Source of the DNA: a virus
Virus genome (UHGV): UHGV-0271208
DNA: 25,010 nucleotides
Reading direction: 5' to 3' (one strand)
Shown here: positions 15,444-24,575 of the stretch, in pieces
Position numbering within the stretch: position 1 is the stretch's first letter
Layout of the letters: each line of letters opens with the position of its first letter
Program-made: the position numbers and the translations under genes
Notes under the pieces: model-generated
What the model was told of the DNA's origin: nothing
The model's database searches: none
The model's input: the letters and a program-made list of their open reading frames with translations, nothing else

Positions 15444-15799
15444 AGCACCACGTCCTGTGTGATAGTTATATCCCTGATACGAATGGATATTTTCAACTTA
15501 TCAAAAGCATCTCCCTCGGCTACTGACAAGCCAGAAATCGGTATGTCAGGTAAATCTACCGTCAGTTTTTGCAACAGCATTGCCTCAACCGCAATTTGAA
15601 CATGCGACAAGTTGGTCGGTTCGTGTTTAAACTGCGGTAAAACATTGCCCCATGACGGATCTCCGTATACCTCACCCTGATAAGTGTTTAGCCACTCATA
15701 TAAACGAGCGCCCCAGGCCTCCTCCTGGGACTCATACGTTTTTACGCCGGATAACTCCAGCGTCAGCAAAGGATCAATTTCGTTATTGTTGGCCATCAA
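15440..15799 (-). CDS. Small morphogenetic protein (position of P1 pmgA)
   Basis: 119-aa ORF overlapping the stop of the Sit-like gene by 4 nt. Confidence 0.55.
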   Translation of the reverse strand: MMANNNEIDPLLTLELSGVKTYESQEEAWGARLYEWLNTYQGEVYGDPSWGNVLPQFKHEPTNLSHVQIAVEAMLLQKLTVDLPDIPISGLSVAEGDAFDKLKISIRIRDITITQDVVL

Positions 15800-18700
15800 T
15801 CAACTCTCGCGTAGTCATTCATCAACGGATCATCAATTGACAGTGGTACCGTGCGCATAACGCCCGGCTGAGGCGTGCTGACCTTTACGACAGTTCCCTG
15901 GCCTTTCGCCGAGTCTTTGGTGTGCTCTTCAATCCTGGCAAGCAATGAGGTCATCTGCGCAAACAGCCGCTTCGTTTCACCATCAAGTGAAACGGTATTA
16001 TCAGCCAACTGCATTGTCGGCTTGGCACCGGAACCGCCAAGGTCACTAATAACCTGCCCGTCTATCTGCATACGACCGGTTGGTTGCTGCAAATCGTTGG
16101 CGGCAGTCGTCACCTTGGACGTGGAGGCTGGTTCAGTCGCATTATTTTTCCGCATCCCCGGCGAGTTGCGGAGTTTATCGAATAGTCCATCAATCCCCAT
16201 TTGTGCGCCGAGTTGGTCAAAGTAACTTGAGTTGCTGGCCACCGGACGCGCCTCTTCAACTGGCATCGGAGTATCAACATACACATTGCCAGCTGCTGTT
16301 GCGGTCCCCTTCCCTCGTGCACGTTCTTCGAGCGTTCCCTGAACGACTTCCCGACGCATACCCCGGCCATTCATGAATTTGTTGACCAGATCGTTAACGC
16401 CAACAGCATTGCCGATTTTGTCTACCAGACCGCCTTTCTCAAACGGGCTATCACCAGGGGTAAACGCCAGGCCAGTAGACTGATCGATAACAGCGTTATC
16501 AGGCAGTGGTCCCCTCACTCCATATTGCGCCCCACCCTGTGCTCCTGCTCCAGGTGTATAGATTTCACCACCTAAATAGCGAGCACGATGAGTATTGACC
16601 TTGATCGCGTACTCACGGTTTTCTTTCGATAAGTCACCTGTGCCTTTTTTCCACTTATTGATAGTGCCAAACCCAGCGTTATATGCAGTGATGGCCTCGT
16701 TTAAGTCTCCATTGGCTTGCTTCAGATACTTGCTCATGAGAAGAGCCGCAGCTTCTGCCGATTTCACAGGATCAAACGATTCACCTTCAGCTAAGCCAGT
16801 CTCTTCACGAGCAATCCCCGTGAACTGAAACATTCCCAGAGCACCGGTTTGGGATTTTGCATACGGATTACCACCAGATTCAGTTGCAGCAATCGCGTAA
16901 AGAGTGCCTTCTGGAAGACCATATTTATTCTCTAGTTCAGCAAAATACGGAGCCAACTTATCGAGATTTGCCTTACCTTCAGATCCAAGACTTCCGACTT
17001 TTACATCCAAGCGGCCATTGTTGTAGGTATCCGCAGCTTTCTGAATGTCATTCCTGGTGCCAGTGGAATTAAGCGACGATGATGACGAGCTATTTTGACC
17101 AATAGCTTTATCAATTTTCTGCAACGCGCTATTGCCCGTTTCTACGGCATTTGCATTGATAATCTGATTCGCAGTTTCTTTAACTGTTTTATTGCTATCT
17201 TTCGCCGTGTCCAGTGCCGCATTTATCACGCGGGTAACAATATTAGTCTGTTTGGCATCGGATTCAGTTTTAGAATCAGATGTCTCCTGGTGGCTATTAA
17301 CCGGAGCTTTTAACTCTGGAGTGATTTCTTTCGCATTAGCCTCGCCGATCGGATTGGGTATTTTTGATACAATCATTGCCGCAGGGGTATTTTTAACGGC
17401 ATCAACCGCTGCATCTAATGCTTTACCAGGTAAATTTTTAACCCCATCCCAAATATTACCAGCCGCCTCTTTAATGTGTTTCCCTGGGTTCTTAATGAAA
17501 TCAATTGCACTATCAATTGCATCACTGAAAACCTGTTTCAGGTTATCAACAGTAAAGAAGTCTTTGATGGCATCCAGCTTTTCAAGCAGCTTATTAGATG
17601 TATCGCTAAACCATGCTGAAACAGCATCACCAATCTTTGCTGTGTAATCTTCGAACTTGGTAGAAATGGTGTCGCCAAGGTTAGAAATATATGTTTCTAA
17701 GTTGGTAATCCCACTATCAATGGCCTGGGCAATACTTTCCGTCGAAAATGATTGCAACATATTGCCGATATCCTCAAATCCAAGTGATTTGAGAACCTCA
17801 CCAATGGCGCTGCTAATACCAGATACCAGTCCCCCCATATCAAGAACATTGGCTAACGTATAAGCGGCTTTTTGCTGGAATGATGGATCTTGTCCTGATT
17901 TAAGCCCAAACGCTCGACGTTGCGCTTCTGTATCATTCCAACCGGTTACCGCATCATAAATACCTCCAGCCACTGTGCCGACTAAGGGAATTGCGCGTAA
18001 CGCCCCTTTACCAACTGCCTTTAATCCAAGTTTACCTGCTGCCCGGGCAGCCAAATCTCCACCTTCATGGGCGATAGTCTTCTTGCCACCACCGCGTAGC
18101 ATTCCTACAAGTTTCTTTGCCCCCAGAGCGCCAAAAGCGAGTGCTCCAGCTTTTTTCAGCATGCCACGCCCCATTAACAACGACGCGACGCCACCGGCCC
18201 CCTTCCCTAACAGGCTAAATAGTTTGGACAGCAAGCCGCCCTTCTTTTTCCCGGTGTTTTTGGCTATCTGATCAAGGGCGCTGAGAATCTTGTCATTGCC
18301 CTCTTTAATTTCGCTGGTCTGCTCCTGAAGTTCCTGAACTGTCCGTTTTTGGGTGTTAACCTGAACGACATCGGCACTATTTTGCGATTTACGCCTAAAA
18401 AAACCTTTTCTACGGCTGTTATCGTCATTGCCACGAATCACATCGGCAATAGACTTTCTGGCACCATTAAGCGATCCACCAACTTCTTTTGATATCCCGC
18501 CAAGCTCCTTCCCTGCTGCCCACAATGGACCAGCAACGGCATAACCTAACGCATCAACGGCACGAGTCTCTGAAGGGTTACCTATGCCTTCAGCTACTTT
18601 TGACAGTTTTTTTAATAAACCTGATTCAGCATTTAGACGCTCATCATCCTCTTTGCGCCTGGCCTTTTCAGCACGTTCAGCACGGGCATCTTCCGCTGCG

Positions 18701-19485
18701 GCCTTACTCCCTGACTTTCCAATAAAACGACCACGCGCATCGCGTTGGTTTTGGCTTTTTTGCGCACCGCCTTTTTGATCGAACATTTCGCGAGCGTGTT
18801 CGGCTGCTTCGGTCCGTTGTGCCTTTATATCCTCTGGTATAGCCTTCCTGCGTCGTTTTTTACCCTTTGGTGTAGTTGATTTGGCCTGCTGTTCCTGTTG
18901 AGCAATGCCCTCCTGAACTACACGAGAAACGTCCCCTAAATTAAGCCGTTTCATTGCGTCAACAATAGGGTCTACTGATGGCGCATTGGCCACAAAGTCT
19001 GGCCGGGAATTTTCGATTGTTCGATTTAATGCCGACACACTGCGAGATACTGGGTCAACCGTTGCAACGCGTTCCCCTTTCAAATCACGAGCGAGTTTGA
19101 CCGTTTCTAACCGCTGTGCTTTAACATCCTCTGTTATTGCCTCTCTTCGTCTATTTGGGGGATTGTGCGCTGTTGGTGCAGCCTGCTGTTCACGGTTAGT
19201 GACTTTGTCCTCCCGTATACGAGAAACGTCCCCTAAATTAAGCCGTTTTATTGCGTCAACAATAGGGTCCACTGATGGCGCATTGGTCACAAAGTCAGGA
19301 CGTGAATTTTCGATTGTGCGATTTAATGCCGACACACTGCGAGATACTGGGTCAACAGTTGCAACTCGTTCCCCTTTCAAATCTTCAACAGCTTCCCGAA
19401 TACCTGCAAGCTCTTCCAGCTCTTTCGCGCTGGCGGTTTCAACTGTCCTTATAACATCGTCAATATTGGCGTTTTTTCTTTCCAT
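15796..19485 (-). CDS. sit: Sit-like structural injection transglycosylase / tape-measure-like protein with SLT domain
   Basis: 1229-aa ORF with a lytic-transglycosylase motif (LPEGTLYAIAATESGGNPYAKSQTGALGMFQFTGIAREETGL), Gly/Ala/Lys-rich hydrophobic segments and an N-terminal tandem duplication. Size and neighbours match P1 sit as recalled. Confidence 0.8.
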   Translation of the reverse strand: MERKNANIDDVIRTVETASAKELEELAGIREAVEDLKGERVATVDPVSRSVSALNRTIENSRPDFVTNAPSVDPIVDAIKRLNLGDVSRIREDKVTNREQQAAPTAHNPPNRRREAITEDVKAQRLETVKLARDLKGERVATVDPVSRSVSALNRTIENSRPDFVANAPSVDPIVDAMKRLNLGDVSRVVQEGIAQQEQQAKSTTPKGKKRRRKAIPEDIKAQRTEAAEHAREMFDQKGGAQKSQNQRDARGRFIGKSGSKAAAEDARAERAEKARRKEDDERLNAESGLLKKLSKVAEGIGNPSETRAVDALGYAVAGPLWAAGKELGGISKEVGGSLNGARKSIADVIRGNDDNSRRKGFFRRKSQNSADVVQVNTQKRTVQELQEQTSEIKEGNDKILSALDQIAKNTGKKKGGLLSKLFSLLGKGAGGVASLLMGRGMLKKAGALAFGALGAKKLVGMLRGGGKKTIAHEGGDLAARAAGKLGLKAVGKGALRAIPLVGTVAGGIYDAVTGWNDTEAQRRAFGLKSGQDPSFQQKAAYTLANVLDMGGLVSGISSAIGEVLKSLGFEDIGNMLQSFSTESIAQAIDSGITNLETYISNLGDTISTKFEDYTAKIGDAVSAWFSDTSNKLLEKLDAIKDFFTVDNLKQVFSDAIDSAIDFIKNPGKHIKEAAGNIWDGVKNLPGKALDAAVDAVKNTPAAMIVSKIPNPIGEANAKEITPELKAPVNSHQETSDSKTESDAKQTNIVTRVINAALDTAKDSNKTVKETANQIINANAVETGNSALQKIDKAIGQNSSSSSSLNSTGTRNDIQKAADTYNNGRLDVKVGSLGSEGKANLDKLAPYFAELENKYGLPEGTLYAIAATESGGNPYAKSQTGALGMFQFTGIAREETGLAEGESFDPVKSAEAAALLMSKYLKQANGDLNEAITAYNAGFGTINKWKKGTGDLSKENREYAIKVNTHRARYLGGEIYTPGAGAQGGAQYGVRGPLPDNAVIDQSTGLAFTPGDSPFEKGGLVDKIGNAVGVNDLVNKFMNGRGMRREVVQGTLEERARGKGTATAAGNVYVDTPMPVEEARPVASNSSYFDQLGAQMGIDGLFDKLRNSPGMRKNNATEPASTSKVTTAANDLQQPTGRMQIDGQVISDLGGSGAKPTMQLADNTVSLDGETKRLFAQMTSLLARIEEHTKDSAKGQGTVVKVSTPQPGVMRTVPLSIDDPLMNDYARVD
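18922..19383. repeat. Intragenic direct repeat: two 165-bp copies (18922-19086, 19219-19383), about 93% identical, period 297 bp
   Basis: Compared base by base: about 11 mismatches in 165. Because 297 bp is 99 codons, the repeat is in frame and encodes the duplicated peptide RVATVDPVSRSVSALNRTIENSRPDFV.NAPSVDPIVDA.KRLNLGDVSR. Confidence 0.85.
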
Positions 19486-20462: not shown

Positions 20463-21074
20463 TCAAAGAGAAAAACTAAAGCCCAGAAGGGAAGCCAAAG
20501 AACTTGAGGATTGGTTAAACGTGCTGTGCAATGCGAAGGTCATTGGGAATGACTTAAATTCAGTAACCTGATCTCGCGCATAGGTGACATCGCCGGTAGT
20601 GACCGGGAATACCGTCATCTCATTTTCCAGTTTGGTTATGCCGGAAGACAGCAACCGATAAATACGCACATTGAGCAAATATTTAGACGGTATATTCCCG
20701 GTACCGTCCGGATTGATCACCCGACTTTTTGCCGTCTTAAACCAGTCCAAAACGAGGCCATCAACGGTATCCCTGACCATCATTGTTATCTGCCCAGGCG
20801 AACGCTCCGTTGGCTGAAGGATATTCCCTCCGCCGATTTTAATCGTTTCATATTCGATGCTGTAATCGTGGTAGGTAATGTCTTTAGCAAAGAAGTCTGC
20901 CCCCTCCAGACCATCAACTTCGACAGAGAACTGCCATCCTTGCGCGAACAGCATTTTGTTCATGATGATTGACGTCAGCTTGCCAACTTCCCGCTCACCA
21001 ACGCCGGAGCCAAATAATGTCGTCGTTAATGCCGAAGATACATAAGACTTTACTGAAGCAACATTAAGCCCCAT
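20463..21074 (-). CDS. Putative tail tube protein (position of P1 tub)
   Basis: 203-aa ORF, 14 nt upstream of the previous gene. Assignment is by gene order. Confidence 0.55.
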   Translation of the reverse strand: MGLNVASVKSYVSSALTTTLFGSGVGEREVGKLTSIIMNKMLFAQGWQFSVEVDGLEGADFFAKDITYHDYSIEYETIKIGGGNILQPTERSPGQITMMVRDTVDGLVLDWFKTAKSRVINPDGTGNIPSKYLLNVRIYRLLSSGITKLENEMTVFPVTTGDVTYARDQVTEFKSFPMTFALHSTFNQSSSSLASLLGFSFSL

Positions 21075-21084
21075 ATCAGCCTCC

Positions 21085-21675
<591 letters not shown>

Positions 21676-21709
21676 TTACCCGATTCTACGAGTAGTCATT
21701 TGTGACAGG

Positions 21710-22186
21710 TCATTTTGCGCGCTTCAGACAGCCATCTTCAGGTGCCGCGTTGAAAAGCTCTGCGGCCTTACGTAGCGTAAATGTTGCTATTTTTTTTCCG
21801 TCTACGTATGCATCGAATGTTTTAACTTCCATATCAGGGGTATCTGACCAAAAACCATACCAGTAACTATCACCCACAGAGGAACCGATAGAACTGATAG
21901 GATATTCATCATCACCAACTTTCAGCGTTATTTGTTCTTTTTTAGCATCAAATGACTCACCGCCAGGTTCTGTTTTCATGAGAGTGAGTAGTCGTGTTCC
22001 TACTTGATTGGGATCCGTATTATTAAATCCAACATCGCACTCAAATGTAAGCGTATAATTATCTTTGCTGGAAACAGCATAAGAACGAACACCATGAGTC
22101 TCGCCGGTTGACCATTTGCTTACATTTGCCATTGATGAAAATGGAGTAAGCAAAGCAAGAATTAGAAAAAATCGTTTGATGCGCAT
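21710..22186 (-). CDS. Secreted protein, sim-region-like (superimmunity candidate)
   Basis: 158-aa ORF with a signal peptide (MRIKRFFLILALLTPFSSMA); AT-rich upstream region; sits where the P1 sim genes lie relative to pmgC. Confidence 0.6.
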   Translation of the reverse strand: MRIKRFFLILALLTPFSSMANVSKWSTGETHGVRSYAVSSKDNYTLTFECDVGFNNTDPNQVGTRLLTLMKTEPGGESFDAKKEQITLKVGDDEYPISSIGSSVGDSYWYGFWSDTPDMEVKTFDAYVDGKKIATFTLRKAAELFNAAPEDGCLKRAK

Positions 22187-22247
22187 TAATTTATCTCCTT
22201 TGGATATTAACGATTATCAATATTTTAATTGGTTATCCATAATATAT

Positions 22248-22895
22248 TTACCATTCATAGGGTAAATTAAGCGCTTTTAAACCTTGCTGAAAGGTATTAA
22301 GTGAGCCGTTCTTTTGTTGTTCCATTTGCTCGCGTGCCGCTTTCTCATACTGCTCCATCCGTTGGTTATACTCTTGCAATTCCTCTGGTGAGAGGTTTCC
22401 CATTGGGGAGTTTGTACCCGGCCCCCTGGCCCGCTCTTCAAGCGTACCCTGCACGTTTTGATGGCGCATTCCTGGGGCATTTCTGATTGAGTCAATGCCA
22501 TTTCTTCCAACGTCTTCTTTATTAACGGCATTGCTCGCCACCAGCACACCCCAGCTAGGAATAGCAAAATCAGGAGCGGTTTCGCATGCCTTTACCATAT
22601 AATCGAAAGAGCTTCGATTGATCTCGTTTGCGTCGGGATTTAACAGGCGAGAATATTGATATTTAGCATTTTCGTTGGTTGCGACTTTATACAGTTCTTG
22701 CTGCACCATCGCTTCAGAAAGTTTAAGGCGTTTCATATCTGACAGTAACTTCTTGCGCATGGATTCGTCTTGACTGACAGCAAAGCCGTAAACGTGCCCA
22801 AGGTATTTCGTATAATCGGTACAAATCTCCTTTACGCTTGATGCTGCATTAACAGTCTCAGCCATAAATAATAACGGTAGTAATAGTTTTCTCAT
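22248..22895 (-). CDS. Secreted protein, sim-region-like, sharing a motif with the Sit-like protein
   Basis: ORF 22248-22922; the likely start is ATG 22895 (GGTGAGG SD), giving a signal peptide MRKLLLPLLFMAETVNA. Its C-terminal part carries NAPGMRHQNVQGTLEERARGPGT, homologous to GRGMRREVVQGTLEERARGKGT in the Sit-like protein. Confidence 0.65.
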   Translation of the reverse strand: MRKLLLPLLFMAETVNAASSVKEICTDYTKYLGHVYGFAVSQDESMRKKLLSDMKRLKLSEAMVQQELYKVATNENAKYQYSRLLNPDANEINRSSFDYMVKACETAPDFAIPSWGVLVASNAVNKEDVGRNGIDSIRNAPGMRHQNVQGTLEERARGPGTNSPMGNLSPEELQEYNQRMEQYEKAAREQMEQQKNGSLNTFQQGLKALNLPYEW

Positions 22896-22991
22896 TATAA
22901 CCTCACCTGCCTTATAACTCATTTAGGGTACATATTTTCGCCTTTAAAAAAAAGAGGTTATTAGATCCAATTGTGTATTTATTAAGCATGT

Positions 22992-23008
22992 AATGCTCTA
23001 ATAAATTT
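22992..23008 (+). promoter_or_regulatory. P1 C1-repressor operator-like 17-mer (Op51-like)
   Basis: AATGCTCTAATAAATTT is one mismatch from the recalled C1 operator consensus ATTGCTCTAATAAATTT; it lies upstream of the c4/icd/ant region. Confidence 0.6.
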
Positions 23009-23204
23009 GTATTTTTAAGTCGCGAATGCTATCTTTTCGCATCATATTGACCTTTTAATCGTTCAGGCTTATAGTTCCGCCGTCGTAGCAAATTCTGCGA
23101 CCGGGTTTAGCAGCCTGAATGTTAGTGCGGACAACCGCAGATATCCGATATTGCGGTATTTTTGTGTCCGTAAAACCGCGTTACGCCCAAATTATGGTGG
23201 GGCG

Positions 23205-23275
23205 TGATGGGGAGGCTTCGGCCTGCTGGTTTCACTAACGCCAGTCTGCTAACCCCGTCACGTCCTGCCACCTGT
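23205..23275 (+). ncRNA. c4: c4-like antisense RNA (ImmI-type repressor of icd/ant translation); boundaries approximate
   Basis: CACTAAC (23233-23239) and CTGCTAAC (23246-23253) are complementary to GTTTAGCAG / GTTAGTG pairs at 23105-23127 and 23274-23311, the second overlapping the icd-like SD. This mirrors the P1 c4 a'/b' versus a1/b1 and a2/b2 layout. Confidence 0.4.
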
Positions 23276-23322
23276 TTAGCAGCGGGTAGCAGGTTGTTAA
23301 ACCTGTTAGTGAGGCCGTAACT

Positions 23323-23544
23323 ATGGTTAATGCCAATCCTTGCGCACGCCAAGAATTCATCTGGCGTTTCTATTCCTGTAAAAAACACCACTATCACTTC
23401 GTTATCGCAGCAACAGAAGACGAAGCACGCTCTCAATTGCCTGATGGCCCCTGCATTTTTACTGCCCGTTTTTCAACTAACTCGCGCAATTCACTTAGTT
23501 ACTGGAGCCTCCCCTTCTCTGCCGACGTTCAGGGGGGTTTATGA
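23323..23544 (+). CDS. icd: Icd-like small protein (73 aa) translationally coupled to ant
   Basis: 73-aa ORF with GAGG SD 8 nt upstream; its stop overlaps the ant start as ATGA. P1 icd is also 73 codons and overlaps ant. Confidence 0.5.
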   Translation: MVNANPCARQEFIWRFYSCKKHHYHFVIAATEDEARSQLPDGPCIFTARFSTNSRNSLSYWSLPFSADVQGGL

Positions 23545-24575
23545 AAACACCTCTCGTCACCCGTAATGAAATAGCCGAAGCGATCGCCTTGCATACAATC
23601 TGTATGCCGACACGGGAGATCCCCGGCGCAATTGCCAACTATTTCATGATAACCAGGCGTTTTTATACCCGAACAGATAAGGCTGTGATCAACAGGCTAC
23701 TGATAGCCGAGATCAGGGATTATTTGATTGAACAAGGACGTCTACGTTACGCAACAGTGGCAGCAGAAATGAGAAAGGAGGCACATAGAATGACCGGTAA
23801 TAATTTAAATGTTGAAAAACCAGCACCTGTTGCTTCAGCTACGCCAGCACCAGCCCTGAATGTCATCCCCAACACCGGAGACACAATCGACAGCCAAACA
23901 TTGTTGAAGATGGTCAATGAGGCACGGAAATTATGTAGCGAAAAACCAGTTCGCAACAATGATTTCATTGCCAGAGTTAAGGATGAGCTTGAAGGAGAAA
24001 CCTACGAAATTTTCGTAGGTCAAAAAAACGGCGCAGAAATAGATATTATAACCATGACCTACAAACAAGCCCTGCGAGTTGCCGCGCGCGAGTCAAAAGC
24101 GGTCCGCCGTTCGCTGATCGACAAACTGGAAGAATTACAGCAGGCAAACTCCCCTACCCCATCGATCCCCCAAACATTACCAGAAGCCCTACGCCTGGCT
24201 GCCGAGTTGGCAGAACAGAAAATGCATCTGGAACAACAGCTGGTGGCCGCAGCACCTAAAGTCGATTTTGCCGACCGGGTATCAGTGGCTAATGGAATCC
24301 TGATCGGTAACTTTGCAAAGGTCGTTGGACTTAAGCAAAACGCCCTTTTCTCATGGTTGCGCCAGAACGGCATTCTCATGGCTTTTGGTGCGCGCAAAAA
24401 CGTACCGCGCCAGCAGTACATTAACGCCGGGTATTTCACGGTGAAAGAAGTGGTGCTGGATGATGAAAATGGCTATCAGATACGGCTGACGCCACAATTA
24501 ACGGGTAAAGGCCAGCAGTGGTTAACTCGCAAGCTACTTGATGCTGGTTTGTTAAAACCAGTAGCAATAGGTTAA
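23541..24575 (+). CDS. ant: Phage antirepressor (Ant-like)
   Basis: 344-aa ORF whose C-terminal region (FADRVSVANGILIGNFAKVVGL...RKNVPRQQYINAGYFTVKEV...QIRLTPQLTGKGQQWLTRKL) resembles antirepressor C-terminal domains; sits downstream of the operator and c4-like elements. Confidence 0.8.
   Translation: MKTPLVTRNEIAEAIALHTICMPTREIPGAIANYFMITRRFYTRTDKAVINRLLIAEIRDYLIEQGRLRYATVAAEMRKEAHRMTGNNLNVEKPAPVASATPAPALNVIPNTGDTIDSQTLLKMVNEARKLCSEKPVRNNDFIARVKDELEGETYEIFVGQKNGAEIDIITMTYKQALRVAARESKAVRRSLIDKLEELQQANSPTPSIPQTLPEALRLAAELAEQKMHLEQQLVAAAPKVDFADRVSVANGILIGNFAKVVGLKQNALFSWLRQNGILMAFGARKNVPRQQYINAGYFTVKEVVLDDENGYQIRLTPQLTGKGQQWLTRKLLDAGLLKPVAIG

Follow-up and report, generated by a model that had tools for sequence, protein, structure and literature searches.

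Two questions about P1 date from the 1980s: how its DNA passes across the envelope, and how the sim locus blocks a second infection. Both may be touched by a DNA stretch of 25,010 nucleotides (hereafter the window), in which a very probably secreted protein encoded at the sim locus shares a segment with Sit. Why should these two proteins have a motif in common? P1 Sit has been identified as the tape measure, and the muralytic domain of the virion resides in it (PMC9024508).

The window derives from a P1-like phage or phage-plasmid (Punavirus). Its positions 21000-24000 are 96.7% identical to Escherichia phage vB_EcoM-Ro157c2YLVW, and P1 and P7 match throughout this interval apart from one replaced cassette. 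The minus-strand gene order is sit (15796..19485), pmgB, tub, pmgC (21085..21651), a 158-aa ORF (21710..22186) and a 224-aa ORF (22248..22922), followed by the divergently transcribed immI region with c4 RNA, then icd and ant. The slot holding the two ORFs is occupied by simC-simB-simA in P1 and by upf50.0/upf50.5 in P7, and corresponds to a region described as hypervariable in P1-like phage-plasmids (PMC9603915). We found that at least five different cassettes, encoding secreted or membrane proteins, can fill it (21710-22186 on the minus strand of the window; L016 8731-10689; L018 8608-10174), including a YfjT-like protein, a 116-aa protein with multiple transmembrane segments and a 344-352-aa SH3-domain protein. 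The features of the locus are as follows.

22248..22922, minus strand: full-length SimA-family ORF; 224 aa if counted from the first ATG, with the ATG at 22893-22895 (215 aa) as the probable start
21710..22186, minus strand: predicted secreted YfjT-like protein, 158 aa, directly downstream of full-length simA at the standard sim locus
22992..23008, no strand assigned: C1 operator Oc4, beside the predicted simA promoter region, placed by alignment to the annotated P1 record
23069-23121: match to Rfam RF03163
23190..23275, plus strand: C4 antisense RNA of the immI region (Rfam RF01695, 70 bits), divergent from simA

The 224-aa ORF belongs to the SimA family. It matches phrog_3933, a family without assigned function, over the full profile (E=9.9e-136; residues 10-224 against positions 1-213 of 213), and several of its 22 homologues are named 'simA domain protein'. 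The second methionine (ATG 22893-22895) is most likely the true start, giving 215 aa; it is preceded by a GGTGAGG Shine-Dalgarno sequence, and the 215-aa form is annotated in phage Ro157c2YLVW. Family members lie at the sim locus between pmgC and c4/icd/ant, with one distant member elsewhere. Matches occur in 266 PLSDB plasmids, 82 of them at full length (>=80% length), annotated as hypothetical or 'simA domain protein'; NCBIfam and PADLOC returned no match for the protein, and scans of genomic and metagenomic contigs added few further divergent simA loci. A borderline Pfam match to PTP-like phytase (PF14566) was rejected; it did not combine a score above the gathering threshold with the catalytic C-x5-R loop.

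Comparison with P1 clarifies what this gene is. Over its first 50 aa, the window protein is 92% identical to P1 SimA by BLASTP (86% over 57 aa by tblastn), whereupon P1 SimA (52 codons; L002, P1 NC_005856, 3488-3646) diverges and stops just after GHVY; identity to P1 simA ends near codon 46, at the start of the simB-simC cassette. Because P1 simA matches the first ~50 residues and then stops, we read it as a 5' remnant whose remaining part was replaced by the simB-simC cassette. By sequence comparison, the window ORF is thus the intact form of P1 simA, and the P1 copy a remnant without the N-domain and the motif described below. This revises the P1 annotation: simA is what is left of a longer gene, which many P1-like plasmids of clinical and animal Enterobacteriaceae still carry intact.

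P1 simA-simB-simC occupies the same slot, between pmgC/LPsit and the c4-icd-ant immI operon, is transcribed in the same direction and encodes products with signal peptides, as predicted for the window protein; the region upstream of simA is 97% identical to P1. Oc4 (22992-23008) lies a few bases upstream of the predicted -35 element of the simA promoter, so the immunity repressor could influence simA transcription. The first-pass annotation had described the window protein as sim-like, which is accurate for its position and its homology to SimA, but it does not extend to SimC, which we take to be the gene carrying P1's Sim phenotype. A SimC homologue is ruled out (best BLASTP E=29), SimB is likewise without similarity, and the match to P1 Sim products is confined to the first ~50 residues of SimA. 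P1 Sim is reported to prevent entry of superinfecting DNA, according to a citation in PMC8546580.

The downstream neighbour also recurs. By synteny, the YfjT-like protein stands next to full-length simA in all fetched sim-locus examples. Its relatives carry the PF27224:YfjT label at pairwise identities of 28-66%, and the 158-aa protein itself matches phrog_3429, another family without assigned function.

Reading of the SimA-family protein revealed four successive parts, listed here from the N terminus.

22845..22895, minus strand: predicted Sec signal peptide, MRKLLLPLLFMAETVNA before ASS, with an A-x-A site, read from sequence and conserved in all relatives
22533..22841, minus strand: helical N-domain (aa 28-130), conserved in the family and containing the invariant Cys34 and Cys113
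22392..22532, minus strand: Sit-like segment, aa 131-177, core motif 22413..22481 (aa 148-170)
22272..22388, minus strand: predicted long C-terminal helix, aa 179-217 (AF2, low confidence), one of several interchangeable C-terminal modules

The predicted Sec-type signal peptide and the invariant cysteine pair support the claim of secretion, which is very probably correct; annotators of P7 and P1 also mark signal peptides on sim-locus proteins. AF2 models the N-domain (residues 28-130) as helical with pLDDT 80-94, and no known fold relative was found for it. The N-domain may be stabilised by a disulfide and the protein is presumably periplasmic. Residues 139-177, including the motif, have pLDDT <50 and are predicted to form a disordered linker. 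For Sit, the C-terminal model (pLDDT 39) is uninformative. Codon 22 (22857-22859) encodes Glu in the window (FMAETVNA, against FMAGTVNA elsewhere); G22E is unique to the window, and ~140 other loci have a small or neutral residue there, Gly in nearly all.

The shared motif itself is well defined. SimA residues 148-170, NAPGMRHQNVQGTLEERARGPGT (22413..22481, minus strand), and Sit residues 1039-1061, NGRGMRREVVQGTLEERARGKGT (16303..16371), are identical at 17/23 positions, so that the motif of roughly 23 aa claimed at first pass is present in both proteins. BLASTP extends the match to 23/47 identities between SimA 131-177 and Sit 1026-1068 (E=8e-9), and P1 Sit matches SimA 130-177 by tblastn at 47.9% identity. 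The Smith-Waterman score of 101 compares with 40.3 +/- 5.6 (maximum 61) in 300 shuffles (z ~11). Profile methods recovered the same region: the Sit-family profile phrog_2533 matches SimA aa 138-180 (E=8.5e-8), and aligning the SimA and full-length Sit families with hhalign gave a single match of 41 columns (probability 95.5%, E=1.5e-8), with no homology in SimA to the SLT domain, hydrophobic segments or conserved C-terminus of Sit. Neither SimC nor SimB matched Sit by BLASTP at E<=1e-3. Likeness at the DNA level, also asserted at first pass, is weak, at 47/69 nt (68%). Different codons encode 11 of the 17 identical residues, and the DNA likeness is only what amino-acid conservation forces.

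On the Sit side, the motif lies immediately beyond the catalytic domain.

15796..19485, minus strand: Sit, tape-measure protein, with an SLT transglycosylase domain at aa 847-956 (16618..16947; Pfam PF01464, E=1e-26)
16282..16410, minus strand: Sit motif copy 1, aa 1026-1068, core 16303..16371, a conservation island just past the SLT domain
16150..16170, minus strand: Sit half-copy 2, RNSPGMR, aa 1106-1112, inside an insertion of ~43-50 aa that the alignment places only in E. coli-type Sit

The half-copy is the second RNSPGMR that the first-pass annotation had noticed further towards the C terminus, recovered here with a pairwise E of 0.011. Among Sit proteins that are 52-58% identical overall, conservation reaches 0.8-0.88 at aa 1006-1060 versus 0.25-0.5 in the flanks. 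G1042, M1043, R1044, G1050, R1055, A1056, G1058 and G1060 stay invariant even when a 44%-identical Sit is added.

A 55-position profile built on the shared segment was run with HMMER on a set of 1.84 billion representative proteins. The ten matches were Sit orthologues or fragments, SimA relatives and one spurious repetitive protein, and a word-seeded search with the Sit C-terminus recovered only Sit fragments. Since only Sit and SimA relatives matched, the motif is neither a common low-complexity element, the objection anticipated at first pass, nor borrowed from the host; no host protein in this search set matched it. In the literature searched, we found no description of the SimA-Sit motif or of full-length SimA, the sim region appearing only as 'variable' or under 'superimmunity'. 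The motif is invisible in P1 and P7 themselves: P1 simA breaks off ahead of it, and in P7 the gene is absent.

Within the SimA family, the motif is retained while its surroundings change. The N-domain is kept in relatives from Escherichia, Salmonella, Klebsiella and Cronobacter and ends in N-x-[P/R]-G-[M/V]-R-x-Q, with N, G, R and Q invariant and M replaced by V in one member. In a 12-member alignment, N148, G151 and R153 show no variation, and M152 and Q155 hardly any; with the most distant member added, N148, G151, R153 and Q155 are still invariant. The sole conserved element of the linker is N-x-x-G-[M/V]-R-x-Q, and many members retain only the first half of the motif. What follows it varies: the remainder of the Sit-like motif and a long helix in the window (215 aa), an immediate stop after the motif in proteins of 163 and 179 aa, a two-Cys hairpin following the motif at 212 and 222 aa, a hairpin directly after G-M-R-x-Q at 189-194 aa, and two hairpins at 246 aa. 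When the Cys-hairpin and long-helix modules were compared by tblastn with fetched stretches of several P1-like genomes, only other SimA tails matched, and mimicry of further virion proteins by these alternative tails was accordingly rejected.

Codon usage and a distant phage bear on how the match has been maintained. In the six genomes compared, different codons encode 43-88% of the residues that SimA and Sit have in common, indicating protein-level constraint in both genes and excluding recent gene conversion as the source of the match. The strongest single case, the P1-like contig IMGVR_UViG_2871745582_000001 (GC 54%; L123 10001-10531 and L124 10001-13372), encodes a Sit only 44% identical, and its simA-like gene lies ~16 kb from sit, on the opposite strand and outside the sim locus; a related contig has this slot empty. 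Its motif reads NAPGMRHQAVKGSMAERARGDGT in SimA and NAPGMRHQVATGSMADRAYGMGT in Sit, with 17/26 residues in common, 11 of them on different codons, and a lineage-specific G-S-M in both. The downstream neighbour of simA in L123 is a different secreted protein of 123 aa, without detectable YfjT similarity. This deep co-retention of the motif in both families is a solid result.

Covariation between cognate SimA and Sit proteins is weak. Over the 14-residue motif head, cognate pairs score 7.56 versus 6.98 for non-cognate pairs (permutation p=0.0065, with 18 combinations that are not independent). When all 27 residues were compared in the five lineages with a full motif, 8/120 permutations reached the observed sum, and the window SimA agrees at 20/27 positions with the Sit of another lineage versus 17/27 with its own. 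The signal is thus suggestive for the head and not significant over the full motif, so that strong cognate covariation is not upheld despite the nominally significant head test.

What might such a motif do? Sit meets the periplasm only during infection and SimA is probably resident there, which makes the periplasm the one compartment where the shared motif could matter. Contraction expels tape-measure proteins, which help to form the channel, as in T4. The reading that we favour, tentatively and short of an even chance, is that SimA serves as a periplasmic decoy which copies a Sit segment, competes for Sit's partner and so blocks genome entry. On tail contraction, Sit is expelled into the periplasm, where it has to cut peptidoglycan with its SLT domain and help to form the DNA conduit. 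The conserved post-SLT segment would dock Sit onto a partner required for this step, which could come from the host envelope or from among the other ejected proteins. SimA, if expressed in the lysogen, would outnumber the few incoming Sit molecules and take up this partner through the same motif, thereby excluding the genomes of P1-like phages; its putatively disulfide-stabilised helical N-domain would be followed by a flexible linker that displays the Sit-like linear segment.

Several observations suggest this decoy arrangement. The match is specific and selected, the motif being kept despite a 44%-identical Sit and a moved simA locus, and it is retained across four C-terminal contexts, one of which ends right after it. 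The predicted disorder in SimA is as expected of a displayed linear motif, and the Sit counterpart forms a conservation island beside the SLT domain. SimA has a predicted signal peptide and invariant cysteine pairs, it is encoded beside immI in the hypervariable sim locus, which houses the exclusion function of P1, and other exclusion proteins are known to act on a tape-measure or ejection protein (T4 Imm, P22 SieA, Ltp). However, SimA is unrelated to SimC and the P1 simA stump is dispensable; cognate matching is weak and the half-motif members are many; a pure decoy model gives the strongly conserved N-domain nothing to do; and a promoter and terminator scan around the gene gave nothing above background.

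A rather unlikely alternative removes exclusion from the picture. The motif could mediate an interaction common to both proteins, with a periplasmic chaperone or protease or as a peptidoglycan tether, and SimA might have another envelope role that benefits the lysogen, possibly together with the YfjT-like protein. The motif occurs in no other exported protein among the 1.84 billion, which would be odd for a general signal, and the locus context favours exclusion.

It is likewise doubtful that SimA acts on incoming Sit itself, through a self-associating segment or with the N-domain as receptor, and caps or co-assembles with Sit to poison the conduit. The same conservation and specificity apply here, the conserved N-domain gains a role, and both T4 Imm, which binds the tape-measure protein, and Ltp, which targets its own, offer parallels. 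Sequence change in Sit points in the same direction. Between two E. coli-type Sit alleles, 9/13 substitutions of the C-terminal 400 aa fall at aa 1102-1124 (16114-16182), around motif copy 2, where nonsynonymous/synonymous codon counts are 9/5 versus 4/22 elsewhere (Fisher p=0.0036), as for an escape surface and possibly as an arms-race signal. SimA type C (NARGMR) was seen only with the Sit beta allele, also NARGMR (3/3; Fisher p=0.0025, the loci not being independent), and NAPGMR SimA occurs with both Sit alleles (44 and 5). Against direct action stand the uninformative C-terminal model of Sit, the fact that homotypic pairing needs no sequence identity, and the weak cognate matching.

The motif could also be an evolutionary relic, a piece of sit captured in simA by illegitimate recombination and persisting without function. 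The sim locus is rich in cassettes and a hotspot of recombination, and the homology is confined to one short patch. We nevertheless consider this improbable: synonymous sites are heavily diverged while the residues are still identical, the patch survives in SimA proteins only 38% identical and at another genomic locus, and outside the core residues the disordered linker is variable, with no invariant position. Chance or low-complexity resemblance, which has nothing but the shortness of the match in its favour, is close to nil in probability given a score of 101 against a shuffle maximum of 61, the agreement of independent profile methods and the specificity of the exhaustive search.

Comparison with established systems places the decoy model among exclusion mechanisms aimed at tape-measure-dependent genome entry, which are already known; mimicry by a soluble periplasmic protein would be new if the motif is functional. 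In Streptococcus phage TP-J34, Ltp blocks DNA injection and targets the tape-measure protein (Bebeacua et al. 2013, as cited in PMC3952083). Like the proposed SimA, Ltp is prophage-encoded, located outside the cytoplasm and linked to the tape-measure protein; unlike SimA, it is a lipoprotein of a Gram-positive siphophage, and we detected no sequence or fold relation between the two. To our knowledge, no report describes Ltp as sharing a motif with its target tape-measure protein. T4 Imm, which binds the tape-measure protein at a helical-bundle domain, differs in being integral to the inner membrane instead of soluble in the periplasm, and no sequence mimicry is described for it. HK97 gp15, in the 2012 work of Cumby et al., is reportedly a prophage moron that blocks DNA entry with a specificity mapping to ejection or tape-measure proteins. 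P22 SieA is also a prophage moron that blocks DNA entry, and its specificity maps to ejection/tape-measure proteins (PMC10883804). Both SieA and gp15 are inner-membrane proteins, unlike SimA, and no homology or shared motif with their targets has been reported.

We found no sequence or fold homology between SimA and these tape-measure-targeting exclusion proteins (Ltp, Imm, gp15, SieA), and the sole link of SimA to the tape-measure protein is the shared, selected motif. It is possible, if somewhat unlikely, that SimA represents the first superinfection-exclusion protein to mimic an injected tape-measure protein, displaying Sit's post-SLT docking motif as a periplasmic decoy. Decoy mimicry of an ejected virion protein would then join the known exclusion mechanisms. 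A functional motif would show which part of Sit is active in the periplasm and would provide a peptide bait for finding its partner; the envelope partner that P1-like phages need for DNA transfer across the periplasm and inner membrane could thus be identified by pull-down.

Two further features of these genes emerged from the analysis. In four read-archive homologues of SimA (P0002, P0004, P0008 and P0016), frameshifts at differing positions lead into one alternative frame, and all four end in ...SSKV; this open frame inside simA corresponds to window positions 22277-22567 on the minus strand, and the shared-frame shifts could reflect assembly errors or recurrent pseudogenisation. The N-terminal part of the window Sit contains a 297-nt tandem duplication (18875-19086 and 19172-19383, minus strand) with a 212-nt core that is 86% identical. 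It repeats ~99 residues (LKGERVATVDPVSRSVSALNRTIENSRPDF...), giving a protein of 1229 aa versus ~1075-1130 aa in relatives, and, Sit being the tape measure, it could alter tail length.
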